Part shown: piece after piece, positions 26,773 through 55,069 of the stretch | Numbering within the stretch: position 1 is the first letter of the stretch | Layout: the number at the start of each line of letters is the position of its first letter | From: Spirochaetia bacterium | GTDB taxonomy: Bacteria > Spirochaetota > Spirochaetia > DSM-2461 | NCBI GenBank assembly: GCA_963666985.2 | Contig: CAXXIA010000002.1 | Coordinates: forward strand, 3,040,001-3,104,000 | Direction: 5' to 3' | DNA: 64,000 nt | Position numbers and translations under genes: made by a program | Notes under the pieces: model-generated | Database searches by the model: none | The model's input: the letters and a program-made list of their open reading frames with translations, nothing else | What the model was told of the DNA's origin: nothing

Positions 26773-27000
26773 ATTCTCGACCTCTTATTTCATCAGTTCT
26801 TGTTGATATGTCATATCTCTGTCCGGCGGCATCCTTCCTTCTCTTCAATTTTTTCAGGAACGATATCGCCGGATAAAGGGCCGCGCTTTTCGACTCTGGG
26901 TTTTATCGGCGCGGCCGTGTTTTTGAAGTAAACGAGGCCCGGCGCTTCTTTCCCCGAGGAAAGACGGCGGCCCGGACCTGTTCGGGTTCAACCGCCCGAT

Positions 27001-28014: not shown

Positions 28015-28249
28015 TCCAAACTCCTTTTCCATAATGGAATATTTATTCAAATCATCGTTGTTCCCCGGAGCGTGATTTCACAAGAGACGAAATCTCATAT
28101 GCATGTGATTTATTCTCCGATCTTAAGCACTCATGCGACAATTTCTCGTATTGTAAGGACAAAAACTCCGATTCGAAGAATGGCAAGCCGGATATGGCCC
28201 TTCAAACCGCGATTTTTTTCAGCCGGTATCGGGGGAAAAGCCGGATGAA

Positions 28250-33676: not shown

Positions 33677-34933
33677 TTAAGAGGCGGCTATCTTGCTCCT
33701 GTAATTCTCCACTTCCCAGTCGACGATAAAACGGACGAAGCGCTCTTCCATAAGTTTCGGCCCTCCGAAGCTTTCGGAAAAAGCGCAGACTTCCAAGGCG
33801 TTCTTCAGCATGAGAACGGCGTTTTTCAGAGCTTTCTCCCCGGCCGCGGCAACCAGAGCCCCGCTGAACGCCGGTCCGTTGAAAAGGGTAAGGTTCGGCG
33901 GCTTTCCCCATCTGTTGATGTATTCACGCGCGCCCGATTCCCAGGCCGAGGCAATAACGGAGGCATCGCCTTCGGGCGTATCGGCGGCTCCGCCGAGTTT
34001 AGCGCCGCCTGTTTCTTCGCCCCGTGCCGCTTTTCCGCAGCCCGCGGACATGTTTGCGTTCAAATACAAGGCTCCCGGTCCCGAATAGACGATATGATCC
34101 GGAGTAAGGCATCCGGTAAGGGGCGCGGCGGCTTCCGCCGAAGCAAGATACATCTCCAGTTCGCCCCCGGCGGCGAAAGAAACACACGCGTCCGCGCCGA
34201 ACAAATCCCGAGCAACATCTGTTATTGCCGCGCCGTTTCCGAAAGCCTCCGTACGTTCCGCCGCCGTTAACTCGGCAGGCATTATTCCGGGCCGCCTCTG
34301 TAACCGAACCTCCAAAGCCTTATTCAAACGCTCGTATTTGCCTCGTACCTCATCGGCATCCCGCCCGCCGGCGAAAATCCCATGATTTTCCAGAAAGATG
34401 TATTCCGGCGAGCCCAGTCCCTTTACCGTTCGGTCCTCAAGCGCCAATTTAATAACATTGGCCAGCACGTATCCCGGATCGGTGTAGGGAATCCAAACGA
34501 GTTTATCGCCGATCAGTTCCGAAGCGATCCGCCGTCCGTCCGCTCCGCAGGTCAAACCGTTTATCAGGGTGGGATGAAGATGAACCACCAAAGGCCAGGG
34601 CAGAATATCGTGCAGAAGGGTTTCCACGCTCGGCCTTCGTGATTCTCCCGGAAGTCTGGCGGCCATCATATCGGCCAGGACCAAACGCTCCCGCTCGGCC
34701 ACGGCCGCGGCATCCGTTCCGGAAGGATAATCGGTTTTCCATATGGCCGCCAGTTTGGCGCGGTCCATATGGGCGAATCCTTCTTCGCCGATGGTCGCCA
34801 AAGGGTATCCCGAGGCCTTTATATACAGAGTCTCTCCGTCTTTCAGCGAAGTGTTCCCGCCTCCGGCCACCACCCAATTCGGATCGGAGCCGTATTCCCG
34901 GCTCAAGGTCACAAGATCATTCATTAAGCGCAT
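33677..34933 (-). CDS. Class II aldolase, probable rhamnulose-1-phosphate aldolase (RhaEW/YuxG N-terminal type, lacking the SDR domain)
   Basis: AGGGNTSLK, IKASG, PSVETLLH, VVHLH, LENHG, second subdomain TPDHIVY; directly downstream of rhaA. Confidence 0.8.
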   Translation of the reverse strand: MRLMNDLVTLSREYGSDPNWVVAGGGNTSLKDGETLYIKASGYPLATIGEEGFAHMDRAKLAAIWKTDYPSGTDAAAVAERERLVLADMMAARLPGESRRPSVETLLHDILPWPLVVHLHPTLINGLTCGADGRRIASELIGDKLVWIPYTDPGYVLANVIKLALEDRTVKGLGSPEYIFLENHGIFAGGRDADEVRGKYERLNKALEVRLQRRPGIMPAELTAAERTEAFGNGAAITDVARDLFGADACVSFAAGGELEMYLASAEAAAPLTGCLTPDHIVYSGPGALYLNANMSAGCGKAARGEETGGAKLGGAADTPEGDASVIASAWESGAREYINRWGKPPNLTLFNGPAFSGALVAAAGEKALKNAVLMLKNALEVCAFSESFGGPKLMEERFVRFIVDWEVENYRSKIAAS

Positions 34934-34937
34934 ATCA

Positions 34938-36194
34938 TCAGTTCCTTTTTGAAAGGACATCCTTTTCATACGCGTGTACCGCCTCTATCAAACCGGCATC
35001 CGAAACAACGCCTGATTCTTCGCAGAAACGATTCCAAACGGTGCCGAAGGGAAGAGTCTTGGAGCGTTCCAGGAGCGCCAGCCGGGCAAACGCGTCACCG
35101 GCCAGATCATATCGGATCAGCGATTCATGCGGTTCCAGGAAGGCGGCCAAGAGACCCTTAAGCGCCGAGCGGGCGCCGATGGCGTAGGCACCGACGCGGT
35201 TCATCGTGGCGTCGAAGAAATCCAAACCGATATGCGTATCTTCAAGACGCCCGCAGCGTACCAGCTCCCGGGTTAAATCGGCGATATCGTCGTTGAAAAT
35301 CACCACATGGTCCGAATCCCAGCGGACCGGCCGGCTCAGATGCAGCATCAGCTCATCGAAAAAGAGGTACACCGAAGAGAGCTTATCCGCGACCGATTCG
35401 GTGGGATGAAAATGCCCCATGTCCAGAGTAACCATCTTGCCGCGGCTGAGCGCGTATCCCATGTAGAACTCGTGCGAACCCACCACGTAGGATTCGCTGC
35501 CGATGCCGAAAAGCTTGGTTTCCACCGCGTCTTTCATGTGCCCGGCCGGATATTCGGGAGCCATCAGGGCATCCAGGGAATCCTTCAGGCGGGCCCTATA
35601 GCCCAGCCGGTCCACCGGAATGTCCTTCGCGCCGTCGGGAATCCAGGTATTGCAGATACACGGAGTGCCCAGCTCCCGGCCGAACATGTCCGACACTTCC
35701 CGGCTTTTCTTTCCATGCTCCACCCAAAAGTCCCGGATGCCCTTATCGGGGTGGGAAAGGGTGAATCCGTCTTCGGCTTTCTGATGACTGAAGAATGTGC
35801 CGTTGAAATCCGCGCCCAGAGCGCGCTGTTTCAGCCAATCGGCCCATCCGGTGAAATGTTCGGGCCCGATGGCGTCTCTGTCGACGAACTTCCCGCCGAA
35901 TTCGCCGTAGCTCATATGCAGGGCCAAACGGTGCTTCCCGGGAATCAGGGAGTAAACCTTATCCAAATCCGTCCGCATCTCCGCGATTGTGCGGGCCTTC
36001 CCCGGATAATTCCCGGTTACCTGGATACCGCCGCCCGAGAGCTCCGCGCCCGGTTTTTCAAATCCGCCGACATCGTCAACCTGCCAGCAATGCAGCGACA
36101 GGGATATTTTTTTCAAAGCCTCAAGAGCCGCATCAACGTTTACACCCAGCGCCGCATATTGCTCCTGGGCATCTTTATAGACCGATTCGTTCAT
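34938..36194 (-). CDS. rhaA: L-rhamnose isomerase
   Basis: SLHCWQVDDVGGFE, TGNYPGKAR, VETKLFGIGSESYVVGSHEFY, GHFHPTE, SRPVRWDSDHV, GLDFFDA; GGAGG RBS. Confidence 0.95.
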   Translation of the reverse strand: MNESVYKDAQEQYAALGVNVDAALEALKKISLSLHCWQVDDVGGFEKPGAELSGGGIQVTGNYPGKARTIAEMRTDLDKVYSLIPGKHRLALHMSYGEFGGKFVDRDAIGPEHFTGWADWLKQRALGADFNGTFFSHQKAEDGFTLSHPDKGIRDFWVEHGKKSREVSDMFGRELGTPCICNTWIPDGAKDIPVDRLGYRARLKDSLDALMAPEYPAGHMKDAVETKLFGIGSESYVVGSHEFYMGYALSRGKMVTLDMGHFHPTESVADKLSSVYLFFDELMLHLSRPVRWDSDHVVIFNDDIADLTRELVRCGRLEDTHIGLDFFDATMNRVGAYAIGARSALKGLLAAFLEPHESLIRYDLAGDAFARLALLERSKTLPFGTVWNRFCEESGVVSDAGLIEAVHAYEKDVLSKRN

Positions 36195-36278
36195 TTTCCA
36201 CCTCCGCCGCCCATAATAATAATTTCTTAAACGGGCACGTGCCTTGACGGAATCGTCGATTAATAGCACGATTTTGTC

Positions 36279-41124: not shown

Positions 41125-41883
41125 TTGCAGCTCCTCAATGAAAGAGAACGGAAAATCATAGACATTCTCATCGAAAATCCCCGCATGGGGATGAACGACA
41201 TGAGTAAGCTTCTTGACGTTTCGACGGTAACCCTCCGAAGCGATTTCGATGATCTTGCCGATAAGGGCTACCTCATCCGAACTCGGGGCGGCGCCCTTCC
41301 GGCCTTTCATCCGGCCATTCTCGCCCGGCAAAAGACCTTTACCGAAGCGAAAACGGCCATCGCCAAAGCGGCCGCGGATCTCATATCCGACGGCGACACC
41401 GTCATGATTGAAGCCGGAACCACAACATCCCTCATCGGCCGTTTTCTGCTGGGCAAACGGGGAGTCAAGGTGGTTACCGATTCCACGCTCCTTTTGCCTT
41501 ATGCCCGTTCCAATCCCGCACTGCATCTGACCATCGTCGGAGGCATCTTCCATCCCGAGGCCGAATCCATGGTTGGTCCCATCGCGGTTGATCACCTCAA
41601 GCAGTTCCATGTGAAGACGGCGTTCATCGGAACCGACGGGCTTTCGGTGGAAAACGGACTTACAACGCATATGATGGAAGCTACGGAAGTCGTTCGGACC
41701 ATGCATAACAGGTCCGACAGAACGGTTCTCTTGGCCGATTCGGGGAAATGGGGACAGGCCGGTTTTGCACGCATCATACCCTTGGATGAAGTTGATATTC
41801 TGGTAACCGACTCCGGACTTTCGGAATCGGCCCGAGATGAAATTAGAACGATGGGGATAGAACTCCTCGTCGCCGAACCGTAA
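41125..41883 (+). CDS. DeoR/GlpR-family transcriptional regulator
   Basis: HTH VSTVTLRSD...RTRGGA, EAGTTT, AFIGTDG, LADSGK; TTG start with AAGGAG RBS. Confidence 0.92.
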   Translation: MQLLNERERKIIDILIENPRMGMNDMSKLLDVSTVTLRSDFDDLADKGYLIRTRGGALPAFHPAILARQKTFTEAKTAIAKAAADLISDGDTVMIEAGTTTSLIGRFLLGKRGVKVVTDSTLLLPYARSNPALHLTIVGGIFHPEAESMVGPIAVDHLKQFHVKTAFIGTDGLSVENGLTTHMMEATEVVRTMHNRSDRTVLLADSGKWGQAGFARIIPLDEVDILVTDSGLSESARDEIRTMGIELLVAEP

Positions 41884-41893
41884 AGGAAGGACT

Positions 41894-43333
41894 ATGGCAC
41901 AAGAAATCGTCATGCCCAAACTGGGCAACACCGTCGAATCGGTGGTCATCTTGGAATGGCGCAAGAATATCGGAGAGAGCATCGCCGTCGGGGAGGTTCT
42001 CTGCGAAGTGGAGACCGACAAAGCGACACTCGACGTGGAGGCCGAAATTGCTGGCACCCTTCTGGCCAGATATTATGAAGCGGACGATGAAGTGGCCGTT
42101 CTTGTGCCCTTCGCCGTTATCGGCGAGGCCGGAGAGGATGTTTCTTCTTTTGCAGCCGCCGAAGCTTCATCTTCTGAAGCCTCATCCGTTTCGGATCAGG
42201 GCGCTCCCACCGATACCGGCGCTTCCTCGGCCGCCCCGGCCGCACAGACCGCCTCCTCCGCGGACGGGAAAGGCGGCGCCTTATCCGATCAGGCCGCAGG
42301 CAACTCGGCCGCGCCGGGAATCTCTCCCCGCGCCCGAAACCTGGCCGCCTCGTCGGGCCTCGGCGGCCTTCCCGCCGCCGGCAGCGGCCCCGGCGGCCGA
42401 ATCATCGAACCGGATGTACGGGCCGCCCTTGAGGGACGCATGCCCCTGACTCCCGCGGCCCTGGCCGCCGGCGGTCCGGCTCCCGCGGTCGGAACCGGAA
42501 TCGGCGGCCGTGTGACGGCAGCCGATGCGGCCGGTTATGCGGGCCTTCCCGCCGGGGCGGCCGAGGCTTCCGCGGCAAGCCGAGCGCCTTCCATGCCCGC
42601 CGCGTCCGTTTTTTCACGTACGGAAGAGTTCCCCGGCCCCGTGGAGAGCATCCCTGTGAAGGGAGTGCGCAAAGTTATCGCCAAGAGTATGTATGCCTCC
42701 CTGCATGAAACGGCTCAGCTGACTCTGAATTCCTCGGCGAATGCCGCCGCTTTGCTTTCCTGGCGCGCCGGCTTTAAGAACAGTCCGGAAGATATGGGAC
42801 TCTCGAAGATTTCCATCAACGATTTGGTGATGTATGCCGTCGCCAAACTTCTGCCGCTGCATCCGGGCCTTAATGCCCATTTCCTGGGGTCTGAAATCAA
42901 ACGGTTTCGGCATGTCCATTTGGGATGCGCCGTGGATACGCCCAAGGGACTCATGGTTCCGGTTATCCGTTATGCCGATACACTCTCGCTCTCGCAGCTC
43001 TCGGCGGAAACACGCCGACTCGCCGCGGCCTGCCGGGATGGAAAGGCCCTCCCCGATGAGCTTTCGGGCGGCACGTTCACCGTTACCAATCTGGGTGCTT
43101 TCGGCATCGAGAGCTTCACTCCGGTTCTCAACGCGCCGGAAGCGGCCATCCTCGGTGTGGGGACTATCACGAACGCGGCCGTCGAAAAGCCCGACGGAAG
43201 CCTCGGAATCGAAAAGAGGCTGGGACTCTCGCTCACCATAGACCATCAGGCGGTTGACGGAGCGCCCGGTGCCCGATTCCTGAAGGATCTCTCCGATATG
43301 ATCGCGCATTTGGAATGGGCAATGGCCCTGTAG
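41894..43333 (+). CDS. Dihydrolipoamide acyltransferase (E2)
   Basis: Lipoyl domain EVETDKA, E3-binding ISPRARNLA...GSGPGGRII, catalytic DHQAVDGA. Confidence 0.93.
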   Translation: MAQEIVMPKLGNTVESVVILEWRKNIGESIAVGEVLCEVETDKATLDVEAEIAGTLLARYYEADDEVAVLVPFAVIGEAGEDVSSFAAAEASSSEASSVSDQGAPTDTGASSAAPAAQTASSADGKGGALSDQAAGNSAAPGISPRARNLAASSGLGGLPAAGSGPGGRIIEPDVRAALEGRMPLTPAALAAGGPAPAVGTGIGGRVTAADAAGYAGLPAGAAEASAASRAPSMPAASVFSRTEEFPGPVESIPVKGVRKVIAKSMYASLHETAQLTLNSSANAAALLSWRAGFKNSPEDMGLSKISINDLVMYAVAKLLPLHPGLNAHFLGSEIKRFRHVHLGCAVDTPKGLMVPVIRYADTLSLSQLSAETRRLAAACRDGKALPDELSGGTFTVTNLGAFGIESFTPVLNAPEAAILGVGTITNAAVEKPDGSLGIEKRLGLSLTIDHQAVDGAPGARFLKDLSDMIAHLEWAMAL

Positions 43334-43336
43334 AAG

Positions 43337-43497
43337 GAGGCTTCTTCAAAATGTGTCTTTGGTCCGTATACTGTGTTCGGCGATGCTCGAAATGCTCATG
43401 TAGTTTTACTACACTGCGCTTTCTGTGCTTCGGCGGCAGCGAGCTGCGAGTCTCGCTCGCTATCTACGAACAAAATCCATCATTTTGAAGAAGCCTC
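43337..43497. repeat. 161-bp palindromic MITE-like element (RPE1-like core)
   Basis: Perfect 17-bp terminal inverted repeats GAGGCTTCTTCAAAATG; central GCTCA-TGTAG-tttta-CTACA-CTGCGCT. Confidence 0.7.
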
Positions 43498-43520
43498 TAG
43501 GAAATATAAGGAAGAAGTGC

Positions 43521-44861
43521 ATGAGTAATTACGATCTGATCATCGTTGGCGGCGGACCCGGAGGGTACAACGCCGCCGAACGCGCCGCGGCCGGAGGACT
43601 GAAAACCCTGGTGGTGGAAAAAGAACACCTGGGCGGTGTTTGTCTGAACCGCGGGTGCATTCCCACGAAAACGCTTTTGGCCGCGGCCAAGCATTACCAT
43701 ATTGCAACAGGCAGCGCCGAGTTCGGCGTGAAAGCCGCCGATGTCACCATGGACTGGCCGACGGCCATGAAGAGAAAGGTCAAGACGGTCCGGGCTCTGC
43801 GCTCGGGCGTGGGAACCAAACTCAAGAAACATCACGTCGATGTTATCGAGGGAGAGGCGCGTTTTACCGGTCCTAAGGAAATCGAGGTGAACGGCGAACG
43901 TCACGGCGCCTCCAAGATGCTCATCGCCACGGGCTCGCGTCCCTTCATCCCGCCCATCCCCGGAGCCGATTCCCCGTCGGTGATGACCAGCCGGGAAATC
44001 CTGGATATCGATCACATCCCGGAATCCCTCGTGGTGATCGGCGGCGGCGTGATCGGTCTGGAATTCGCCTCGTTGTTCTCCACGCTGGGAACGAAGGTGA
44101 CCATCGTGGAAATGCTCCCTGAGATCGTACCGTCGCTGGATGCCGAGGTGGCGGCTCTGCTTCGCGGGCGCCTGGAAAAGCAGGTAACCTTTAAACTCGG
44201 CGCCAAGGTTGAGAAAATCGACGGAAACACGGTGCACTATACGGACTCAAACGGTGCGGGAAACGCCGCCGGCGAAGTTATTTTGATGTCCGTGGGACGT
44301 CGCCCCGTCACCGACGGCTTGGGCCTGAAAGAAATCGGACTGGATATTCAGCGCGGCGCGATTGTTGTTGATGAGCACATGAGGACGAATCTGCCCGGAG
44401 TGTGGGCCGCCGGAGACTGCACCGGAAAGAGCCTCTTGGCTCATTCGGCCTACCGCATGGGCGAGGTTGCCGTCAACGATATGCTTTCCAAAGCGGATCG
44501 GATGCGCTACAGCGCCGTTCCTTCGGTGGTGTACAGCATCCCCGAAGCGGCGGGAGTGGGCTTAACCGAAGCGGACGCGGCGAAGGCCGGCCGAGAGGTG
44601 ATCACCAAGCAGCTCCCCATGCAGTACAGCGGCCGCTATCTGGCCGAATACGGTCAGCAGCCCGGTTTCGGAAAAATCGTGATCGACGCGAAAACCCGCG
44701 TTCTTCTCGGCGTGCATCTGGTCGGCGCTCAGTGCTCGGAGATGATTTGGGGAGCCGCCGCTCTGATTGAGGCCGAATTCCGCGTGGATGAAGTGAAGGA
44801 ACTCATTTTCCCGCATCCGACGGTCTCTGAAATCATACGGGAAACGGCCTGGGAGTTTTAG
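43521..44861 (+). CDS. lpdA: Dihydrolipoamide dehydrogenase (E3)
   Basis: GGGPGGY, GGVCLNRGCIPTK, GGGVIGLE, HPTVSE. Confidence 0.95.
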   Translation: MSNYDLIIVGGGPGGYNAAERAAAGGLKTLVVEKEHLGGVCLNRGCIPTKTLLAAAKHYHIATGSAEFGVKAADVTMDWPTAMKRKVKTVRALRSGVGTKLKKHHVDVIEGEARFTGPKEIEVNGERHGASKMLIATGSRPFIPPIPGADSPSVMTSREILDIDHIPESLVVIGGGVIGLEFASLFSTLGTKVTIVEMLPEIVPSLDAEVAALLRGRLEKQVTFKLGAKVEKIDGNTVHYTDSNGAGNAAGEVILMSVGRRPVTDGLGLKEIGLDIQRGAIVVDEHMRTNLPGVWAAGDCTGKSLLAHSAYRMGEVAVNDMLSKADRMRYSAVPSVVYSIPEAAGVGLTEADAAKAGREVITKQLPMQYSGRYLAEYGQQPGFGKIVIDAKTRVLLGVHLVGAQCSEMIWGAAALIEAEFRVDEVKELIFPHPTVSEIIRETAWEF

Positions 44862-44992
44862 CGGACCGATTGTCCGTCCTCGGGTGAAAGGGACGCTTGG
44901 ACCGTTAAGCGACAGGCGTCATGGAAGAGAAATCAGAACACCGGCGGCGTTCGCCGGTGAGTCGGAATATTAGGAACCAAGGAGATCATCCA

Positions 44993-47449
44993 ATGCCCAA
45001 ATGCCAAATCGTCGACCCCAAAGAGGTTCGTAAAAGCGGTAAAATTAAGTTTAACGACATTCCGGTCAATCAGTATAAAAGCGACTACGCCAAGGAAGTG
45101 AAGACCTGGGGCGTGGAACGGCTGAAAGCGGCCTACTACCACATGCTGCTTATCCGGGAATTCGAAACGGTGATGGATTCCATCAAGAAAACCGGTGCCT
45201 ACAAGGGCGTGGAATACAATCACGCGGGACCGGCGCATTTGTCCGTCGGTCAGGAAGCCGCCGCGGTCGGTCAGTCCATGGCCCTCACTCACGAGGACTT
45301 TATTTTCGGTTCCCACCGTTCCCACGGCGAGATTCTGGCCAAGACGCTTTCGGCCGTCGTTACGATGGACGAGGCGGATCTTTTGAACATCATGAAGGAG
45401 TACTGGGGCGGCGAAATTCTCTCGGTTGTGGAGAAAAGCGGATCCTCGGATGTTCGGGATTTAACCGTGGACTTCATCCTCTACGGCACCATGGCCGAAA
45501 TTTTCGCGCGGAAAGCCGGCTTCAACCGGGGCTTGGGCGGTTCCATGCATACCTTCTTCCCGCCCTTCGGCTCCATGCCGAACAACGCCATCGTGGGCGG
45601 AAGCGGCGATATTTCCGTCGGAGCGGCGCTTTACAAGAGAATCAACCGGAAGCCGGGCATCGTTATCGGCAACATCGGTGATGCCGCCATGGGCTGCGGA
45701 CCGGTGTGGGAAGGCCTGATGATGGCTTCGATGGATCAGTACAAAACCCTCTGGGACAAGGAGGTGGGCGGTGCGCCTCCGGTGCTGCTGAATTTCTTCA
45801 ACAATTTCTACGGCATGGGCGGTCAGCCGGTGGGCGAAACCATGGGATTCGGCATGCTGGCCCGATTGGGCGCCGGAATCAATCCCGACAATATGCATTC
45901 CGAACGGGTGGACGGCTATAATCCGCTGGCGGTGGCCGACGCCACGGCCCGAAAGAAGAAGATTCTCCTCGCCGGCGACGGTCCTGCCATGCTGGATGTG
46001 GTGACTTACCGGCTTTCGGGCCACAGTCCTTCGGACGCATCGAGCTACCGCACCAAGGAAGAAACCGAACTCTGGCAGGCTCAGGACTGTCTTGAAGGTT
46101 ACGAGGCCTATCTGAAAAAGAACGGAGCCCTGGACGATTCGGCCATAGGCGCGTATCGGGAAACGGTGGATAAAAAGCTGATGGATACGTTCCTGAAAGC
46201 CATCGATTTGAAGATTTCACCGCGGCCCGAAGGACGCTTTATCGAGTCGGTTATGTTCTCCAACCAAAAAGTGGAGGCCTTCGACGACAGAGAGCCTGAA
46301 ATGCTCCAGAAGCCGGAAGACAATGAGCGGGTGAAGAGTCTGAAGAAGAAGATCCGGAGTGCCAAGGACGAGAACGGCAAGCCGGTGAGTTCCGCCAAGC
46401 TGTTCGCGTTCCGGGATGCGCTTTTCGAGGCCATGATTCACCGTTATTCCATCGATCCGACTCTGGCGGCCTGGGGCGAGGAAAACCGGGACTGGGGCGG
46501 AGCTTTCGCGGTTTACAGAGGGCTCACCGAAGCGATTCCCTACCACCGGCTGTTCAATTCTCCGATTTCCGAAGGCGCCATCGTCGGCGCGGGCGTGGGG
46601 TATGCCCTCTCGGGCGGCCGGGCGGTTGTGGAACTGATGTACTGCGACTTCCTGGGCCGGGCCGGGGACGAGGTGTTCAACCAGATGTCCAAGTGGCAGA
46701 GCATGAGCGCCGGTGTTCTGAAAATGCCTCTGACTCTGCGGGTTTCGGTGGGCGCCAAGTACGGGGCGCAGCATGCTCAGGACTGGACCTCCCTGGTGGC
46801 TCATATCCCCGGACTGAAAGTCTATTTCCCGGCGACTCCCACGGACGCCAAGGGTATGCTGAACCTGGCCCTTTCCGGCACCGATCCGGTGGTGTTCCTG
46901 GAGAGCCAGAGACTCTACGGCATCGGAGAAGAGTTCGAACCGGGCGGTGTCCCCGAGGGCTATTACGAAACCCCCGAAGGTGTTCCCGCGGTGCGGAAGC
47001 AGGGAAAGGATCTGACGATCATCACTTTGGGCGCGACGCTTTACACGGCGCTGAAGGCCGCGGACACGTTGGCCGAAACATACGGGGTGGACGCCGAGGT
47101 TATCGATATGCGCTTCGTGAATCCGCTGAATTACGATGTTCTGGCCGAATCGGTGAAAAAGACCGGCCGGGTGATTTTGGCTTCCGACGCGGTGGAGCGG
47201 GGCAACTATCTGCAGACCGTGGCCAACAATTTGAGCCAGATCTGCTTCGACTCTCTGGATGCCCCGCCGGTGGTGCTGGGGTCACGCAACTGGATTTCTC
47301 CGGCGGCGGAAATGGAGAGCGACTTCTTTCCGCAGAGCGAATGGCTTATAGACCTGGTGCATGAGCGGATTCTTCCTCTTAAGGGTCATGTTCCCACAAC
47401 GGTACAGACCATCGGCGAACTGATTCGCCGGGAGAGGAGCGGCGTGTGA
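44993..47449 (+). CDS. Fused alpha/beta E1 ThDP-dependent dehydrogenase (acetoin / 2-oxoacid dehydrogenase-like)
   Basis: [21 protein letters not shown], ThDP motif GDAA...NNFYGM, YRLSGHS; beta part [32 protein letters not shown]. Confidence 0.9.
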
Positions 47450-48783
47450 GCAGCAAGGCCGAACTGGAGGCTTTGAGACTCGACGGGAGCGACGCGGCCT
47501 CCCGGCTGGCGCGGCTGGAGGAAAAGCTGGCGGCGGATCGCACGGCGGGGTTCGCTCCGCCGAAGACCGGCGAGGTGAACAACCATATCCACACGAGTTA
47601 CTCTTTCAGTCCTTATTCGCCCGCCGAGGCGGCCTACGGCGCCTGGCGGGCCGGGCTGGAAGCGGCCGGGATTGTGGACCATGAATCGGTTTCCGGCTGC
47701 GCCGAAATGAGTGAAGCCGGAAAACGGATCGGTCTGGGCGTAACCTCGGGCTGCGAGCTTCGGGTGGATGCCGCCGGGACGCCGCTTGAGGGCCGCCGGA
47801 TTAACAATCCGGACTCGCTGGGGCTGCTGTACATGGTGATTCACGGCATCCCGAAAAGCGGCCTGGCCGAAGTGGACGCGTACCTGGCGAAAATCCGGAA
47901 ATCCCGGAACGCGAGAATGCGGGACCAGACCGCGGCGCTGAACGGTATTCTGGCCGAAGCGGGACTGCCGATCCTGGATTTCGATGACGATGTGGCGGCG
48001 ATTTCCAGGAGTGCCGAGGGCGGCAGCATCACCGAACGGCACATCCTTTTCGCTCTGGCGAAAAAGGCGGCGGATGCCTACGGACGCGGAGAAACGCTGG
48101 TCGGAATGCTGGATTCGGCTTTCGGGCTCTCGGTGCCGCCGGTTATCGCTCAGCGTCTTTCCGATCCGGAGAATCCCCATTTTCTCTACGATCTTCTGGG
48201 TCTGTTTAAAGGATCTCTGGTGCCGCGATTCTTCCGGCAGCCGGATTCCGTTGAGTGTCCGCCGGCGGCCGAAGCGACCGCCCTGGCCGCTCGGGTGGGC
48301 GCCATTCCCGCTTATCCTTATCTGGGCGATGTGGGCGAGTCTCCCACGGGCGATAAGAAGGCCGAGAAGTATGAGGACGATTGGCTGGAAGAACTGTTTG
48401 AGGTTCTGCCCGAGATGGGCTATAAGGCCGTAACCTACATGCCTCCGCGGAATACGAAAGAGCAGCTTTCGCGGGTGAAGGATTTCTGCGGCAAAAAGGG
48501 CCTGATGCAGATCTCCGGCGTGGATATCAATTCTTCGCGGCAGGATTTTCGGTGCCCCGAAGTAACCGATCCCGATTTCGTGCATTTGAACGACAGCACG
48601 TGGGCCCTGATTGCCCATGAACATCTTTCGAATCACGGCGGTCCGGGGCTCTTCGACGAGGCTTCGCCCATGAAGGACGCGCCTTTGGAAATTCGGCTGG
48701 ATATTTACGCGAGAATCGGCCGGCGAATGGATCCTTCGCATCCGGAAACCATTCTCGCCGCGGCCAAACGGGAGGGCTTATGA
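47446..48783 (+). CDS. PHP-domain protein (putative metallophosphoesterase)
   Basis: [21 protein letters not shown] metal-binding motifs; GTGA overlap with the E1 stop. Confidence 0.75.
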
Positions 48784-49982
48784 ATCGATTGATTTTAACT
48801 CCGATACTCCGCGGGGCCTATATGGAAGCCCTCAAGGGGCCTGTTTTCCTTCTTTTCAGCGAGACTGAAAATACCGATCTGCCCGAGCTCGTTCTCGGAG
48901 GAGACGGCGGACGCCGAATGAAAGAGGACTTTTCCTCCGGCGAAGTCTATACCGCCGAAAACCGGGAGTGGGAACGGAAAATAGGAAAACAGGCCCGGGA
49001 CGCTCTGGCCGCGATGAAGGACGCCGACGGTTTACTGCCCGCCGGCGTTCGTGTCTCGGGTTTGGGGAGCTTTTATGCCGGAAGAACTTGGGAAGAGGCC
49101 GAGGCTCATCGCCGCGGCGCGGCCGGCCGTTTGCCTGAGGCGGCATGTTCCGGACGGGCCGATGTTGTTCGGGGGCGTATCGCGTTGGTAACGGGAGGCG
49201 CTCAAGGCTTCGGCGCGGAAATAGCCCGGGGGCTGGCGGATGAAGGAGCCTTTGTGTTCGTGGCGGACATCAACGCCGAGGGCGCCGAAGCTTTCGCCGC
49301 GGAACTGAACGGAACGGGAGCCAAACGGGCCGCCGCCGTGGCCGCGGATGTGTCGGATGAGGATTCCATTCGGGCCATGGCCGACTCCGTGGTCGCCGAG
49401 GCCGGGGGGCTGGATCTTCTGGTGAGCAACGCCGGCGTGCTTCGCGCCGGGTCGGTTCTGGAACAGCCCGCTCGGGATTTCGATTTCGTTACACAAATCA
49501 ATTACAGCGCCTTTTTTATGGTGGTGAAGCACTGCGCTCCGGTGATGATTCGGCAGAGATCGGCGTGTCCGTCGCGAAGAAGCGACATTCTGCAAATCAA
49601 TTCCAAGAGCGGCTTGGCGGGGTCGAATAAAAACGGCGCTTATGCCGGCGGAAAGTTCGGAGGAATCGGCTTGGTGCAGAGCTTCGCCATGGAACTGGTG
49701 GAGTACGGAATCAAGGTGAACGCGGTCTGCCCCGGCAACTTCTTCGACGGACCTTTGTGGTCCGATCCTCAAAAAGGGCTTTTCGTTCAGTACTTGAACA
49801 CGGGGAAGGTGCCCGGTGCGAAGAGCGTGGCCGATGTGAAGAGATTTTACGAGGCGAAAGTGCCCATGGGACGAGGATGCGAAGGCGCGGACGTGCTGCG
49901 GGCCATCCTTTACTGCGTTGAGCAGGAATATGAAACGGGTCAGGCCGTGCCGGTTACAGGCGGTCAGATTATGCTGAAATAG
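48780..49982 (+). CDS. SDR, sorbitol-6-phosphate 2-dehydrogenase (SrlD)-like, with about 130-aa N-terminal extension
   Basis: VTGGAQGFG, QINSKSG, YAGGKFGG, KVPMGRGC, TGQAVPVTGGQ, matching SrlD signature segments. Confidence 0.85.
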   Translation: MNRLILTPILRGAYMEALKGPVFLLFSETENTDLPELVLGGDGGRRMKEDFSSGEVYTAENREWERKIGKQARDALAAMKDADGLLPAGVRVSGLGSFYAGRTWEEAEAHRRGAAGRLPEAACSGRADVVRGRIALVTGGAQGFGAEIARGLADEGAFVFVADINAEGAEAFAAELNGTGAKRAAAVAADVSDEDSIRAMADSVVAEAGGLDLLVSNAGVLRAGSVLEQPARDFDFVTQINYSAFFMVVKHCAPVMIRQRSACPSRRSDILQINSKSGLAGSNKNGAYAGGKFGGIGLVQSFAMELVEYGIKVNAVCPGNFFDGPLWSDPQKGLFVQYLNTGKVPGAKSVADVKRFYEAKVPMGRGCEGADVLRAILYCVEQEYETGQAVPVTGGQIMLK

Positions 49983-49989
49983 CTCGCCG

Positions 49990-50104
49990 AAGCGGTCCTT
50001 TGGCCTTAATGCGGCGCCGGGGAATTGATTGAATTGCTCACGTGCCGGAGCACGCTGCGCTTTTTTCGCCGGATTCCCCGGCCTGCCTTTAGGCCAAATC
50101 GCTT
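49990..50104. repeat. Second palindromic element with the same core as 43337-43497
   Basis: Nested stems TTTGGCCT/AGGCCAAA and GCCGGGGAAT/ATTCCCCGGC; core GCTCA-CGTGC-cgga-GCACG-CTGCGCT. Confidence 0.65.
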
Positions 50105-50158
50105 GCTTGGGCAAACTGCTTGTTGCTGGTGAATGAAGGAAATATAAGGAGTAGTGAA

Positions 50159-51427
50159 ATGAAAACCAATGCGGTTCGAATGTACGGAAAGGAAGATCTT
50201 CGGCTCGAAGAGTTCGAACTTCCCGAGATGAAGGACGATGAGATACTGGCGCACATCATTTCCGACAGTATCTGTATGAGTACCTATAAAGCCGCCGAAC
50301 AGGGAACGGCTCATAAGCGTGTTCCGGCGAATATCGCCGAAGAGCCCGTTATGATCGGTCATGAATTCTGCGGCCGGATTCTCAAAGTGGGATCCAAGTG
50401 GGCCGGGAAATACAAGGAAGGCGACAAGTTCACCATTCAGCCGGCGCTGAACTACAAAGGGAGTCTGGATGCTCCCGGATACAGCTTCCGGTGGATCGGC
50501 GGAGCGGCCACCGACATCCTCATTCCCAATGAGGTGATGGAGATGGACTGCCTTCTGCCTTACGACCAGGAAGCATATTACTTCGGCAGCCTTTCGGAAC
50601 CCATGAGCTGCATCGTGGGCGCTTTCCGCGCCAGCTATCATGTTCCGCAGGGAACTTACAATCATCAGATGGGTCTCAAACCCGGCGGTACGATGGCCAT
50701 TCTGGCCGGCGCCGGTCCCATGGGACTGGGCGCGGTTGATTTGGCTCTTCACGGCGATATCAAGCCGCGAAAACTGGTGGTGACCGATATCGACGATGCG
50801 CGGCTTGCGCGCGCCGAGTCCCTCTTTCCCGCATCCGAGGCGGAAAAAGTCGGCGTGGAATTGGTTTATATGAACACCGCCAAAGTCGACGATCCGGTGG
50901 CCGCTTTAAAGGCGCAGGCCGGTTCGGACGGATTCGACGATGTCTTCGTTATGGCGCCCGTCGCTCCGGTTATCGAACAGGCGGACCGCATTCTGGGTAA
51001 GGACGGCTGCATGAATTTTTTCGCCGGTCCCACAAATCCCGAATTCACGGCGAAGGTCAACTTTTACGACGTTCACTATGCTTTCCATCACATCGTCGGA
51101 ACCAGCGGCGGAAACACCGAAGATATGATGATTTCCTTGGAAATGATGAGAATCGGACGTATTGACCCCTCCATCATGATTACTCATGTCGGCGGATTGA
51201 ATTCGGTGATTGAGACCACGCTGAATCTGCCGAAGATTCCCGGCGGCAAAAAGCTCATTTACACGAACGTGAAGCTGCCGCTCGTCGCCATTGAGGATTT
51301 TGCCGAAAAGGGAAAAAGCGATCCGTTCTGGGCGGCCCTCGCGGAGATTACCGGGAAGAACAACGGGATTTGGAACGCGGAAGCGGAGGCTTATCTTCTG
51401 GCGAACGCTCCGGCCATCTGCGGCTGA
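50159..51427 (+). CDS. L-sorbose-1-phosphate reductase (SorE)-like Zn-binding dehydrogenase
   Basis: RMYGKEDLRLEEFELP, SDSICMSTYKA, GHEF, IQPALNY, GAGPMG, GTSGGNT, IPGGKKLIY. Confidence 0.85.
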   Translation: MKTNAVRMYGKEDLRLEEFELPEMKDDEILAHIISDSICMSTYKAAEQGTAHKRVPANIAEEPVMIGHEFCGRILKVGSKWAGKYKEGDKFTIQPALNYKGSLDAPGYSFRWIGGAATDILIPNEVMEMDCLLPYDQEAYYFGSLSEPMSCIVGAFRASYHVPQGTYNHQMGLKPGGTMAILAGAGPMGLGAVDLALHGDIKPRKLVVTDIDDARLARAESLFPASEAEKVGVELVYMNTAKVDDPVAALKAQAGSDGFDDVFVMAPVAPVIEQADRILGKDGCMNFFAGPTNPEFTAKVNFYDVHYAFHHIVGTSGGNTEDMMISLEMMRIGRIDPSIMITHVGGLNSVIETTLNLPKIPGGKKLIYTNVKLPLVAIEDFAEKGKSDPFWAALAEITGKNNGIWNAEAEAYLLANAPAICG

Positions 51428-51568
51428 AAAATCGGAGAATATCCCAAGGCGGCCGGAAAAATTTATACCTCCGGTTTCGGCTATATCATGAGATAATTGT
51501 TTACGGCGGATTCTTTAAAGGACCGCCGTGAATGTTTTAATAACTGATTTTTTCGGAGGAATTCTTAT

Positions 51569-53371
51569 ATGAAGTTCAAAGCGGCGAAAACAGGAGAATG
51601 GCGTTATACCGGCGGAAGGCCTAAAATCGGCATCAGACCGACGATCGACGGACGTCTCGGCGGCGTTCGGGAGAGTCTGGAAGATCAGACGATGAGCATG
51701 GCCAAAGCCGCCGCCGATCTTATCTCCGGGAAATTAAAGTATATCGACGGAACACCGGTGGAATGCGTTATCGCGGAGAGCTGCATCGGCGGTGTCGCCG
51801 AGGCTTCTGCCTGTCAGGCCAAGTTTGAAGCCTCCGGAGTCGGCGCCACTCTCACGGTAACGCCCTGCTGGTGTTACGGTTCGGAAACCATGGATATGGA
51901 TCCCAAGACTCCCAAGGCCGTTTGGGGATTCAACGGGACCGAGCGGCCCGGTGCCGTTTATTTGGCCGCCGTTCTTGCCGCCCATGCTCAGAAGGGGCTT
52001 CCCGCGTTCGGAATCTACGGGCGGAACGTGCAGGATTCAAGCGACACAAGCCTTCCCGCCGACGTGGAAGAGAAAATTTTAAGGTTCGCCAGGGCCGCCG
52101 TGGCTTTCGCCACCATGCGAGGCAAAAGCTATCTTTCCATCGGTTCTGTGTCCATGGGCATCGCCGGCTGCATTGTCGATGAAAGTTTCTTCCAGAATTA
52201 TCTCGGCATGCGCAACGAGTACGTGGACATGAGTGAAATCGGCAGGCGCATCAGGGAAGAAATTTACGATACCGCGGAATACGAGCGGGCCCGTGCCTGG
52301 GTGAAGGAAAACTTGAAGATCGGGGCCGATCCCAATCCCGCCGACCAGCGGCATTCACCGGAACGGAAAGAGGCCGAATGGGACGAATCGGTAAAGATGG
52401 CCCTTATCGCGAAGGATCTGATGAGCGGAAATCCGGCGCTGGCCGAAAAAGGTTTCGGCGAAGAGGCCCACGGACACAACGCCATCGCCGCGGGTTTTCA
52501 GGGACAGCGGCAATGGACCGATTGGAGAGCCAACGGCGATTTCATGGAGACCATGGCCAACACCAGTTTCGACTGGGACGGATTCCGGCAGCCTTACATC
52601 CTGGCCACGGAGAACGACACCCTGAACGGCATTACCATGCTGTTCGGGCATCTCTTAACGAATACGGCTCAGATTTTCAGCGATGTACGCACCTTCTGGA
52701 GCCCCGAAGCCGTGGAACGCGTTACGGGACATAAGCTCGGCGGCCGGGGTGAGGGAGGACTGATCCACCTGATCAATTCCGGCTCCACCTGTCTTGACGG
52801 TACCGGCGAGCAGACCGTAAACGGAACGCCGGGCATCAAGCCTTTCTGGGAGATTACCGAAGCGGAAGCCGAAGCCTGTGTGAAGGCCACGAATTTTTGT
52901 CCCGGAAATTTAGGCTATTTCCGCGGCGGCGGCTATTCCTCCGATTTCCTTACCAAAGGGAATATGCCCTGCACCATGAGCCGTCTGAACTTGATTAAAG
53001 GGCAGGGACCGATCCTGCAGATCGCCGAGGGCTGGACCGTGGAAATCCCGGGTGAGGTTCATGATAAGCTCGACAAGCGAACCGATCCCACCTGGCCGAC
53101 CACTTGGTTTTCGCCTCGCCTTACGGGCACGGGGAATTTCAAGGATGTCTATTCGGTCATGGCCGCCTGGGGCGCCAATCACGGAGCCGTCAGTTACGGA
53201 CATATCGGCGCCGATTTGATTTCCCTGGCGGCGATGCTCCGTATTCCGGTTTCCATGCACAATGTCGCAGATGAAGCGATTTTCCGTCCGGCCGCCTGGA
53301 ATCACTTCGGTCAGGATAAGGAAGGAGCCGATTTCAGGGCCTGCGCGAACTTCGGCCCGATGTATAAATAG
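51569..53371 (+). CDS. fucI: L-fucose isomerase (family also acts on D-arabinose)
   Basis: [57 protein letters not shown]. Confidence 0.95.
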
Positions 53372-53380
53372 ATTTTTCTT

Positions 53381-53541
53381 CTCCGGGGCGGCCTGCTGAC
53401 GATAAGTGCCGCCTTGGGGATCACGGGGGCGTACCGCGTAACCGCGTAAATATCAGTGTGCTGACGTCGGAAACGGACAGCTTTGAGAACGTACCGGACA
53501 TCTGCGCGGAAGACTGCACGGCAGTGAGGTACGCCCCGATC
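53381..53541 (+). other. Structured intergenic element (multi-stem)
   Basis: Hairpin 53381-53420, then a closing stem GGGGCGTACC/GGTACGCCCC enclosing inner stems, one with a GAAA tetraloop. Confidence 0.5.
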
Positions 53542-53569
53542 AATATTCCACAATTCCGGGAGAACCGTA

Positions 53570-55069
53570 ATGAGCTACACAGTCGCCGTCTTGGACATCG
53601 GAAAGACCAACAAGAAAGTCGCTTTATATGATGAAGAGATGAACCCCATCGCCGTACGTAAGAGAAAGATTGAAACGTACGTACAGGATGGTCTGGATAT
53701 CGAAGACATCGAAACGGTGGTCGACTGGTTCCTTCAGCAGCTCGGGGAACTCGGGAAGGAATATGAGATTCGAAGCATTGCCGTTACAACACACGGCGCC
53801 ACGTTCGTTTGTCTTGACGGTGAAGGACATCCGTCGGTTCCGCCTGTGGCCTACACCAACGAAGTGGATGAGAGCGTTCATGAACGGTTTTGGGCCGCCA
53901 TGGGAAACCCCAAGGAAATTCAGCGAAACACCGCAACCGCTGAAGTCAAGCCTTTAATCAATCCGGCCAAGCTCCTTTGGTTTTTGAAGGAAAGCCGGCC
54001 TGAGGATTTTAAGCGGACCAAGCATATCCTTCTCTATCCGCAGTACTTTGCCTACAGGCTGACCGGCAGGATCGCGGCCGACATTACCTATACGGGCTGT
54101 CACAGCTACCTCTGGGACTTCGGAAAGAACGATTGGTCGGAAGTGACCGATAAGCTTGGGATTCGCGGCATGCTGCCGAAGAAGCCGGGACTGCCGACCG
54201 AAGAGCTCGGTCCCCTTTCGCCGGAAGTTGCCGCACGGACCGGTTTGTCTCCGGATGTAAAAGTTACGCTGGGGATTCACGATTCCAATTCGTCGCTCAT
54301 TCCCTATTTGATTACTCAAAAGAAAGATTTCGTGCTGAATTCCACCGGAACCTGGTGCGTAGCCATGCATCCGGTGGACCAAGTGCGTTTCGAAGCCGAT
54401 GAGCTGGGAAAGATGATCTTCTACAACTTATCGTTTGAGGGACGGCCGGTGAAAACGTCCATCCTCATGGGCGGGTTGGAATACGCCTTTTATACCGAAG
54501 CCGTCATGAAGCATCACGGCAGGCAGGAATGGCCGGATTATGATCCGGCGATGTATGCCGATATCCTTTCCCTGCCGCGGACCTTCCTGCTTCCGTCCCT
54601 GGTTCCGGGAAGCGGTCAGTTCCCCGACTCGGTCGCCAGAGTCGTTGACGAGGGAGAAGAGTATTCGCCGAACGATATCGAAACCGGGAACCGCTGGCCC
54701 AAGGCTTTCGAGGATTATCGCGCCGGATTCGCTCTGGCCAATCTTTCTCTGGCCATTCAAACCCGTATCGCGCTGCTTCGCGTCGGACTTACCCCCGGAA
54801 CGGAAGTGTTCATCGAGGGCGGATTCCGGCAGAACGAAAATTACGGCGCCCTTCTCGGTGCGCTGCTCCCGGAAAATCCTCTCTATTTAACGTCTCTTGA
54901 TGAAGCGACAAGTTTCGGCGCGGCTCTGACGGCCAAAGCCCTGGCGGACGGTGTGTCCGTTGCGTCCTTAAAAAAGTATGTCAAACTCGACAAGCAGCCG
55001 GTAACCCCGGCCCGATTGGATGGGCTGGAGGATTATGTCGCGGCGTTTATGGCGTATATCGAGGGCTGA
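53570..55069 (+). CDS. FGGY-family carbohydrate kinase (RhaK-like; probable fuculo/rhamnulokinase)
   Basis: AVLDIGKTNKK, TTHGA, GIHDSNSS, STGTW, IEGGF. Confidence 0.85.
   Translation: MSYTVAVLDIGKTNKKVALYDEEMNPIAVRKRKIETYVQDGLDIEDIETVVDWFLQQLGELGKEYEIRSIAVTTHGATFVCLDGEGHPSVPPVAYTNEVDESVHERFWAAMGNPKEIQRNTATAEVKPLINPAKLLWFLKESRPEDFKRTKHILLYPQYFAYRLTGRIAADITYTGCHSYLWDFGKNDWSEVTDKLGIRGMLPKKPGLPTEELGPLSPEVAARTGLSPDVKVTLGIHDSNSSLIPYLITQKKDFVLNSTGTWCVAMHPVDQVRFEADELGKMIFYNLSFEGRPVKTSILMGGLEYAFYTEAVMKHHGRQEWPDYDPAMYADILSLPRTFLLPSLVPGSGQFPDSVARVVDEGEEYSPNDIETGNRWPKAFEDYRAGFALANLSLAIQTRIALLRVGLTPGTEVFIEGGFRQNENYGALLGALLPENPLYLTSLDEATSFGAALTAKALADGVSVASLKKYVKLDKQPVTPARLDGLEDYVAAFMAYIEG

Follow-up and report, generated by a model that had tools for sequence, protein, structure and literature searches.

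A conserved gene cassette replaces fucA beside fucI and may carry 6-deoxyhexoses to acetyl-CoA

Nine genes at a spirochaete fucI locus

We analysed a 64,000-nucleotide stretch of a spirochaete genome (the window; positions 3,040,001 to 3,104,000 of contig CAXXIA010000002.1, assembly GCA_963666985.2), in which nine genes, deoR-E2-E3-E1-PHP-SDR-MDR-fucI-kinase, form a unit that we call the cassette. SDR and MDR denote short- and medium-chain dehydrogenases/reductases, coordinates are window positions, and G, C, L and f numbers designate genomes, contigs, loci and families of the comparison. The host genome is 4.86 Mb and 93% complete, and its nearest named relatives are Spirochaetaceae. The initial annotation had described one co-oriented unit with overlaps between E1, PHP and SDR and without fucA or fucO. 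Indeed, all nine open reading frames (ORFs) are intact and lie on the plus strand in this order, 4-nt overlaps join E1 to PHP (GTGA) and PHP to SDR (ATGA), the remaining gaps are 10-198 nt, each gene has a plausible ribosome-binding site, and neither fucA nor fucO was found within the unit.

41125..41883 (+), DeoR-family repressor of the cassette (PF00455/PF08220)
41894..43333 (+), E2 lipoyl acyltransferase (lipoyl PF00364, E3-binding PF02817, catalytic PF00198)
43521..44861 (+), E3 dihydrolipoyl dehydrogenase (TIGR01350, 481 bits, cut-off 409)
44993..47449 (+), fused alpha-beta thiamine diphosphate (ThDP) E1 (PF00676+PF02779+PF02780), proposed acetyl-transferring 1-deoxy-ketose-6-phosphate dehydrogenase
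47446..48783 (+), metalloenzyme of PHP fold whose site is remodelled, proposed to be a ketose-phosphate epimerase/isomerase
48780..49982 (+), SrlD-like SDR (polyol-6-phosphate 2-dehydrogenase type) with an N-terminal extension of ~125 amino acids (aa)
50159..51427 (+), SorE/YggP-like zinc MDR (ketose-1-phosphate reductase type)
51569..53371 (+), L-fucose isomerase FucI (NF008220, 1067 bits, cut-off 775; TIGR01089, 1035 bits, cut-off 850)
53570..55069 (+), FGGY kinase (PF00370+PF21546), candidate fuculo/rhamnulokinase of non-FucK/RhaB type

E3 was started at the ATG with a ribosome-binding site at 43521 (ORF-finder start, 43425). Only FucI and E3 exceed an NCBIfam cut-off among the nine proteins. 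E1, PHP and MDR are single-copy in the host genome, which contains six class II aldolase-fold (PF00596) genes. No phosphotransferase system (PTS) genes were found within the unit, unlike in sor PTS operons. The host genome, at 93% completeness, gave no match to bacterial microcompartment shell proteins and six matches to iron-dependent alcohol dehydrogenases, all outside the unit. Promoter and terminator scans at the locus gave results at chance level. Elsewhere in the host (G000:C2:2410994-2412754, L125), a second FucI-like gene (53%) stands with a xylose-isomerase-like TIM barrel, a GntR regulator and a TRAP transporter; a FucI-like gene is paired likewise, together with an SDR, in three other spirochaetes (L151-L153).

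Linkage of the cassette and its place at fucI loci

In a scan of one genome per species, at least 583 of 594 matched stretches encode an E1 relative. The best 80 loci were kept (61-86% E1 identity, many of them short) and span Spirochaetota, Actinomycetota, Verrucomicrobiota/Lentisphaerales, Chloroflexota, Myxococcota and Gemmatimonadota. They contain E2 (65), E3 (64), DeoR (50), PHP (48), SDR (48), MDR (41; 23 of the window type and 18 of a longer type), kinase (22) and fucI (17). For the 35 loci that extend 7 kb or more to both sides of E1, the counts are E2 35, E3 33, DeoR 32, MDR 28, SDR 27, PHP 25, kinase 15 and fucI 10, and PHP, SDR and MDR occur together in 25. PHP tracks E1: both occur in the identical 11 of 121 Actinomycetaceae genomes, and each of the 17 PHP-bearing spirochaetes (of 151) is one of the 18 that have an E1 from the wider family. 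Linkage of the cassette genes is far beyond chance, and the conserved neighbourhood of E1 with sorE, srlD, PHP and fucI, which the initial annotation had named as a supporting check, holds across phyla.

A second cassette subtype (L104-L107, L120, L126-L128 = G169, G191, G252, G264; L067, L073) has a diverged PHP (25%), a 540-aa MDR, a PHP-SDR or Ald2-SDR fusion and, nearby, a divergent 550-aa FucI-family isomerase; it may act on another sugar. The 750-780 aa SDR ORFs of L105-L107 had been considered as aldolase fusions; this was rejected, as their N-terminal part is PHP, and they are counted as PHP-SDR fusions. Upstream of deoR, CGAAA direct repeats with 10-12 nt spacing occur in 27 of 47 related regions (L001-L080) versus 0.64 in shuffles, a count to which many near-identical actinomycete rows contribute. 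These repeats are a candidate DeoR operator common to spirochaetes and actinobacteria; the region upstream of deoR in this window did not score positive in the repeat test.

The relation between cassette and fucA was examined in 121 genomes from Actinomycetaceae, to which G001 belongs (requested completeness, 90% or more). E1 occurs in 11, FucI in 14 and both in 7. All seven genomes with fucI and without E1 show lacI-fucI-kinase together with a FucA-type class II aldolase of 214-241 aa no more than 3.5 kb from fucI, whereas none of the seven with both has a class II aldolase beside fucI; there, the cassette follows fucI-kinase-lacI instead. Four of these seven (G001, G164, G247, G266) gave neither a PF00596 match nor an ald2-profile match (ald2 is described below). 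Likewise, no class II aldolase, ald2 or RhaA was found in the spirochaete G155 (99% complete), whose cassette adjoins fucU-ABC-lacI-fucI. G003 was dropped as an aldolase-free genome because part of its sequence reads N.

Among 151 spirochaete genomes, host included, an E1 orthologue occurs in 8 (again with the host), E1 paralogues of 35-38% identity in 10 more, and FucI in 31. Leaving the host aside, FucI is present in 6 of 7 E1-orthologue genomes versus 24 of the remaining 143, and the seventh (G034, one contig) has RhaA and ald2. The fucI operons of G130, G086 and G155 contain neither kinase nor aldolase, and the kinase sits in the cassette. Thirteen fucI loci from E1-orthologue-negative spirochaetes comprise four with fucA-fucK (G119, G139, G154, G106), three with another SDR/TIM-barrel layout and six, from paralogue-bearing families, without fucA nearby. 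The 35%-identity paralogues of family f14 were not beside PHP or fucI in the loci inspected and were not counted as the same cassette. The fucA-versus-cassette pattern thus recurs in two phyla. Since a FucA-type aldolase stands beside fucI in 7/7 Actinomycetaceae without E1 and in 0/7 with it, and five genomes with both fucI and the cassette gave no class II aldolase match, the cassette substitutes for fucA beside fucI. The system shares its first two steps with FucI-FucK-FucA-FucO and RhaA-RhaB-RhaD and differs in having no FucA at these loci. For 23 gut genomes, including Actinomyces sp. HPA0247 and A. odontolyticus, the missing fuculose-phosphate aldolase has been listed as an unsolved gap (Ravcheev and Thiele 2017, PMC5583593). 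Actinomyces sp. HPA0247 is L046/G001 of our comparison and carries fucI and the cassette, with no class II aldolase.

In the host, a rhamnose locus lies upstream of the cassette on the minus strand, where an AraC regulator is also encoded near rhaA, ald2 and the transporter.

34938..36269 (-), L-rhamnose isomerase RhaA (NF002203, 625 bits, cut-off 572), an associated feeder gene
33677..34969 (-), ald2, RhaE-like class II aldolase-fold gene (PF00596), candidate rhamnulose-1-phosphate aldolase or 4-epimerase
23232..28050 (-), associated sugar ABC transporter of four genes, with 45-62% homologues beside rhaA/rhaM/ald2 in G034 and G116

The transporter is, by context rather than by a family scan, putatively of RhaSTPQ type. 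A transposase-like ORF (37551-38744; IS481/IS3-type integrase domain, by eye) stands between the rhamnose genes and the cassette and has a near copy at C1:1274690-1275712. An ORF that, judged by its motif, is presumably a HipA-like kinase (31812-33155, minus strand) is inserted in the rhamnose locus and separates ald2 from the two-component/ABC genes.

Over 425 aa, ald2 has 36% identity with the N-terminal portion of cassette aldolase-SDR fusions in other phyla (Ald2-SDR; L044, L060, L073, L076, L120; the L073 row was out of frame in one alignment and was left out), and the window SDR is 59% identical to their C-terminal part. Because the two window proteins match the two parts of these fusions, ald2 belongs to the system. 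Furthermore, ald2 adjoins rhaA in G034, G086, G023 and G116, and a clostridial-type form of the cassette (L113, L114) contains lipA/lipB, ald2 and a RhaB-like kinase. The fusions have the domain layout of RhaEW, but their SDR part is SrlD-like, and the RhaEW model TIGR02632 (cut-off 568) gives only 92 bits for ald2 and 288-323 bits for the fusions. In ald2, Glu102 and three His (acid residue and metal triad) are invariant in 11 sequences. A second FucA- or RhaD-like aldolase often accompanies ald2 (L120, L122, L123 and the Caldicellulosiruptor cluster discussed below), which leaves room for an epimerase role of ald2. The description of the unit as aldolase-free in the initial annotation thus suits the fucose-only genomes, and not the host or the rhamnose versions, which have a class II aldolase-fold partner (in the host ald2, 6 kb upstream beside rhaA).

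Enzyme families and a candidate route

By family scores and tree position, E1 is not of the ordinary pyruvate, acetoin or branched-chain type; clustering with such enzymes was what the initial annotation had named as refuting its route. Its ThDP motif (GDA...NN at 229) is intact, as are the ETDKA lipoyl site and DHQAVDG catalytic motif of E2 and the redox CxxxxC and HPTVSE motifs of E3. E1 scores below all pyruvate dehydrogenase (PDH) E1 cut-offs (TIGR03182, 162 of 394; NF006667, 219 of 321) and is 36-40% (beta) and 26-29% (alpha) identical to aco gene products. In a beta-domain tree of 29 rows, the cassette and a Rhizobiales clade group together (100/100) apart from the acoB rows, with BkdB outside; the aco/bkd-type rows are 33-40% identical, no bona fide PDH beta row is included and several outgroup branches are long. 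Basic residues R499, R556 and K589 are invariant and specific to the clade. The host encodes a separate, ordinary AceE-AceF-Lpd cluster (AceE-type PDH) and a lipoyl synthase. The acetoin dehydrogenase AcoABCL, which cleaves an acyloin, is the nearest characterised E1 type and has the same ThDP E1, lipoyl E2 and E3 with intact catalytic motifs. Unlike AcoABCL, the cassette has a fused E1 of 818 aa with insertions in a separate clade, an E2 of CoA acyltransferase fold, a sugar-phosphate gene context and no AcoX/AcoR.

The Rhizobiales sister clade of fused E1 (50% identity) lies beside a xylulokinase and a D-arabinitol-dehydrogenase-like gene, or beside a fructokinase-like and a psicose-3-epimerase-like gene, and has a free lipoyl domain and an alpha/beta hydrolase in place of E2. 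Its loci are L092 12001-16484 (Rhizobium pRL8), L093 12001-24927 (Agrobacterium pAt15955) and L094 10366-16534 (a Pleomorphomonas plasmid), candidates for oxidative ketose-phosphate cleavage releasing glycolate or acetate. Given these neighbours, E1 substrates may be phosphorylated ketoses of xylulose/fructose configuration.

MDR and SDR are closest to enzymes for phosphorylated ketoses and polyols. The MDR is 49-50% identical to annotated SorE and 52% to E. coli YggP, both of which are encoded beside PTS genes; it keeps the zinc ligands Cys39, His68, Glu69 and Glu147 and gave no SorE model match. The best family of the SDR is NF009050 (224.5 bits, below the cut-off of 307) and its best PDB match is Erwinia SrlD (5o3z), with a common NSKSG motif; it is 27% identical to Klebsiella SorD. 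The kinase falls below the FucK and RhaB cut-offs (TIGR02628, 49 of 471 bits; TIGR02627, 54 of 528), and its best PDB matches are 3h6e, then RhaB and FucK. Its assignment as a fuculokinase follows from context, including spirochaetes in which the fucI operon lacks a kinase and this gene lies within the cassette.

The model of PHP (predicted local distance difference test score 92.6) has the fold of BAD_1165, Cv1693 and RNase AM (3o0f/2yb1; for 3o0f, Z 26.5, root-mean-square deviation 2.7, 276 aligned, Foldseek E 5e-11), including the helical insertion of PHP phosphoesterases (TrpH/YciV, Cv1693, RNase AM). A search of the ESM Atlas gave only unnamed PHP clusters. Invariant residues are H47, H49, E104, Y129, R157, E197-R198-H199, Y290 and R335. 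The full trinuclear His/Asp/Glu set of the phosphoesterases is incomplete: H47, H49, E104 and D360 are retained, and Y129, Y290, N362 and F54 stand at His/Asp ligand positions, Y129 aligning with the His of HTVH (2yb1) and F54 with the Asp of SDG. AYP for AHP and DIN for DxH were matched by motif, without inspected structural superposition. On the assumed assignment of residues to metals, two of the three metal sites are altered. A site with one metal and two tyrosines is more in keeping with an epimerase or isomerase than with a phosphoesterase; among proteins of the related amidohydrolase fold, uronate isomerase is a precedent. PHP may be a C3 epimerase. Twelve loci with distant PHP relatives were inspected, and in 7 of them the relative directly precedes a ketose-bisphosphate-type aldolase or a transaldolase gene. 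Within L166-L177 (spirochaete families f14 and f27), these are a class II ketose-bisphosphate-type aldolase (6 loci) and a transaldolase-phosphoglucose isomerase fusion (1 locus); f14/f27 genomes also carry fucI with no fucA next to it and 1-3 fused E1 paralogues (35%). In three genomes, PHP matches are interrupted by an internal stop or split (G116:C4:6910-8151, G074:C42:2156-3242, G169:C18:12569-13807), which may be real or a start-site artefact.

Chain inversion by SorE and SrlD and the chemistry of FucI, RhaA and the sugar kinases are established, and FucI with the kinase gives L-fuculose-1-phosphate (fuculose-1-P). From there, we lean, somewhat beyond even chances, towards a 6-deoxyhexose route in which fuculose-1-P would be chain-inverted to a 1-deoxy-ketose-6-P and split to acetyl-coenzyme A (acetyl-CoA) and tetrose-4-P, with no aldolase releasing dihydroxyacetone phosphate and lactaldehyde. 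The MDR would reduce C2 of the ketose-1-P to a 6-deoxy-hexitol-1-P, the SDR would oxidise the carbon next to the methyl group to give a 1-deoxy-ketohexose-6-P, a methyl acyloin, and E1/E2/E3 would cleave it oxidatively between C2 and C3 into acetyl-CoA, tetrose-4-P and NADH; DeoR would control the catabolic unit.

Fischer bookkeeping with SorE/SrlD stereochemistry leads from fuculose-1-P to 1-deoxy-D-tagatose-6-P, as the initial annotation had correctly derived, and from rhamnulose-1-P to 1-deoxy-D-sorbose-6-P, and C2-C3 cleavage of either yields D-threose-4-P. The tetrose of the annotated outcome would thus be D-threose-4-P, which lies outside central metabolism, and the annotation had assigned no function to PHP. 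By the same bookkeeping, fuculose differs from 6-deoxy-L-sorbose at C3 only and from rhamnulose at C4 only. PHP could thus epimerise L-fuculose-1-P at C3 to 6-deoxy-L-sorbose-1-P (or epimerise the product at C4), which would be inverted to 1-deoxy-D-fructose-6-P and cleaved to acetyl and D-erythrose-4-P, and the SorE- and SrlD-like enzymes would then act on deoxy analogues of their usual substrates. Rhamnose would enter via RhaA and ald2, the latter possibly a C4 epimerase. With a C3 epimerase (PHP) and, for rhamnose, a C4 epimerase (ald2), no gene would be left without a function and the products would be central metabolites; the host genome encodes transketolases. In FucA-bearing genomes, the route would be a branch beside the propanediol route. 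The version with D-erythrose-4-P is preferred and takes the larger part of our confidence in the route, which makes it possible rather than probable as it stands; the remainder goes to a tagatose-series version ending in D-threose-4-P, in which PHP would handle the tetrose. More tentative still is the joint reading of a third fucose/rhamnose route in Spirochaetota, Actinomycetota, Clostridia and other phyla, with E1 as a lipoamide-dependent 1-deoxy-D-fructose-6-phosphate dehydrogenase, PHP as an L-fuculose-1-phosphate 3-epimerase and ald2 as a rhamnulose-1-P 4-epimerase.

The cassette resembles the L-sorbose pathway (SorE with SorD/SrlD, L-sorbose-1-P to fructose-6-P) in its reduce-then-oxidise logic and SrlD-type SDR. 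It differs in being fed by an isomerase and an FGGY kinase without a PTS, and a product whose C1 is a methyl group could not be passed into glycolysis. ThDP-dependent C2-C3 cleavage of ketose phosphates would be shared with phosphoketolase. 1-Deoxyfructose-6-P is a known metabolite and aldolase substrate, and in anhydroglycolysis it is made by YbiW/PflD and split by an aldolase to hydroxyacetone and glyceraldehyde-3-phosphate (as described in PMC13450708); unlike there, the cassette would make its 1-deoxyketose from fucose or rhamnose, with lipoamide-oxidative cleavage and neither a glycyl radical enzyme nor a dehydration. The fructose-6-P aldolase (FSA) family gene inside three cassettes (L002, L029, L076) fits 1-deoxyfructose-6-P. 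By the tests applied, the cassette probably combines sorbose-type inversion with acetoin-dehydrogenase-type cleavage and belongs to neither family.

Published evidence and competing explanations

The same gene set has appeared in print. For Caldicellulosiruptor, Athe_0695-0706 are listed as fucA, rhaD1, hypothetical, srlD, sorE, lipB, lipA, E2, E3, E1, rhaR2 and rhaA; the three-subunit dehydrogenase Athe_0702-4 is proposed to metabolise L-lactaldehyde, and srlD/sorE are filed under 'Sorbose?' (Rodionov 2021, PMC8579813). Csac_0865-0876 are strongly induced on rhamnose, with most genes unexplained (Bielen 2013, PMC4187192). By gene content alone, this cluster is almost certainly the same system: it resembles L113/L114 and the window in composition, has a single-gene E1 and is rhamnose-induced, and it differs in carrying FucA and a second aldolase where the window unit has fucI and a kinase with no FucA adjacent. 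A protein search with the clostridial-type E1 returned no Caldicellulosiruptor protein among its best 120 matches. The initial annotation knew of no characterised pathway of this form; the cluster had in fact been noticed (PMC8579813, PMC4187192) and, in these sources, assigned to lactaldehyde. Searches of full-text literature, in which most subscription journals are absent, gave no description of the inversion-plus-E1 route, of epimerase roles or of fucA being excluded; PMC8269263 and PMC13067940 contained nothing of relevance. What is already in print is the gene set with its link to rhamnose and fucose, and the inversion variant is probably undescribed.

Several points weigh against the inversion route. 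Every substrate assignment after fuculose-1-P is deduced from family membership and context, and stereospecificity is insecure because the MDR is equally near YggP and SorE and both MDR and SDR fall under their family cut-offs. The host genome (93% complete) gave no transaldolase or FSA match. Seven of the 35 long loci have E1/E2 without PHP, SDR or MDR inside the fetched flanks, and 4 of the 11 Actinomycetaceae cassettes lack a canonical FucI and have only the divergent FucI-family isomerase. In G199, and likewise in G224, a single class II aldolase other than ald2 is encoded elsewhere in the genome, and G005 has two in a neighbouring cluster 13-17 kb from fucI, the FucA-like one at 13 kb. 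Aldolase absence refers to class II (PF00596) and the ald2 profile, so other aldolase folds could remain, and the 14 fucI-bearing Actinomycetaceae are kin, so Fisher values overstate. RhaE, a relative of ald2, is a proven rhamnulose-1-P aldolase (PMC3870299), and the Glu and three His found in active aldolases are retained in ald2. Finally, C. saccharolyticus on rhamnose forms 1,2-propanediol, acetate, H2 and CO2 at 1:1:1:1 (PMC4187192), and it makes ethylene glycol from D-arabinose and propanediol from L-fucose (Isern 2013, PMC3637100).

A cluster seen at L124 and L121 in two Actinomycetaceae comprises GntR, a RhaEW-like fusion, an LsrF-type aldolase and a FucA-like gene beside an IF-2B-family isomerase and an APH kinase of methylthioribose/5-deoxyribose type; it adjoins the cassette in G005.

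Propanediol formation shows the aldolase route in culture and keeps alive an explanation at the three-carbon level, which we regard as unlikely but as the best of the alternatives. Here, an aldolase (ald2, FucA or PHP as a new-fold aldolase) would free L-lactaldehyde, which MDR and SDR would convert via 1,2-propanediol to hydroxyacetone, or E1 would act on lactaldehyde to give acetyl-CoA (and a C1 unit) or lactyl-CoA; in a variant, FSA would cleave 1-deoxyfructose-6-P and E1 would take the hydroxyacetone. This extends the published lactaldehyde proposal for Athe_0702-4 (Rodionov et al. 2021, PMC8579813), and propanediol is a product of Caldicellulosiruptor, where no lactaldehyde reductase is known from these accounts. 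Small acyloins are substrates of acetoin dehydrogenase, the nearest characterised E1 type, enediolate chemistry could take place at a single-metal PHP site and three cassettes carry the FSA gene, but the host has no FSA/transaldolase match. Against this explanation, five genomes combine fucI and the cassette and gave no class II aldolase match, so that PHP would have to be an unprecedented aldolase. Moreover, MDR (~50%) and SDR (40-46%) resemble sugar-phosphate enzymes and not FucO or diol dehydrogenases, ketose kinases flank the sister E1 clade, and the invariant R499, R556 and K589 are specific to this E1 clade. Stoichiometric propanediol, which the initial annotation had named as refuting its route, is indeed seen in C. 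saccharolyticus on rhamnose, but that cluster comes with FucA (PMC4187192) and is therefore no test of aldolase-free genomes; an acetyl-CoA branch there can carry little flux and need not dominate.

It is improbable that the same inversion serves chiefly another sugar (L-galactose, L-mannose, D-arabinose or an unknown deoxy sugar), with E1 cleaving an ordinary ketose phosphate to glycolyl-CoA or serving another acyloin. FucI also acts on D-arabinose and L-galactose (according to the title of ref. 19 in PMC3637100), the second subtype with divergent PHP, long MDR and divergent isomerase makes up 4 of the 11 Actinomycetaceae cassettes, and the sister E1, with its alpha/beta hydrolase, lies among pentitol/ketose genes. 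However, inversion of a non-deoxy hexose ends at fructose-6-P and would make a dedicated E1/E2/E3 superfluous, fucU, rhaM, rhaA and fucosidase-rich hosts point to fucose/rhamnose, and the Caldicellulosiruptor cluster is rhamnose-induced and tracks growth on rhamnose (PMC4187192). That E1/E2/E3 is an ordinary pyruvate, acetoin or branched-chain dehydrogenase placed by chance in a sugar operon is very improbable: the database names of its relatives ('2-oxoisovalerate dehydrogenase E1', 'acetoin dehydrogenase E1') and the 7 of 35 long loci without the three sugar enzymes would agree with it, but an identity of 28-40% to the AcoA/B and BkdA/B halves, a clade of its own (100/100) below PDH cut-offs, the separate AceE-AceF-Lpd and the strict co-occurrence with PHP do not.

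Fermented fucose and rhamnose from mucin, pectin and algal glycans are assumed to pass through lactaldehyde to propanediol or propionate. If the inversion route is correct, the methyl end would instead become acetyl-CoA, which would change cross-feeding predictions for gut, digester, termite gut and sediment, and would explain the published fucA gap in Actinomyces/Schaalia. By our own arithmetic, it would yield ~3.7 versus ~2 ATP per deoxyhexose at the cost of extra NADH, and would therefore be favoured where an electron sink is available. Thousands of 'oxoisovalerate/acetoin dehydrogenase' annotations would be corrected (of 7999 candidates scored among the matches listed, all 7999 had E<1e-50), and a carbon-conserving C2+C4 cleavage would become available for metabolic engineering. 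E1 itself would be the oxidative counterpart of phosphoketolase and the founding member of a family of E1 enzymes that cleave ketose phosphates, to which the Rhizobiales sister clade would also belong.

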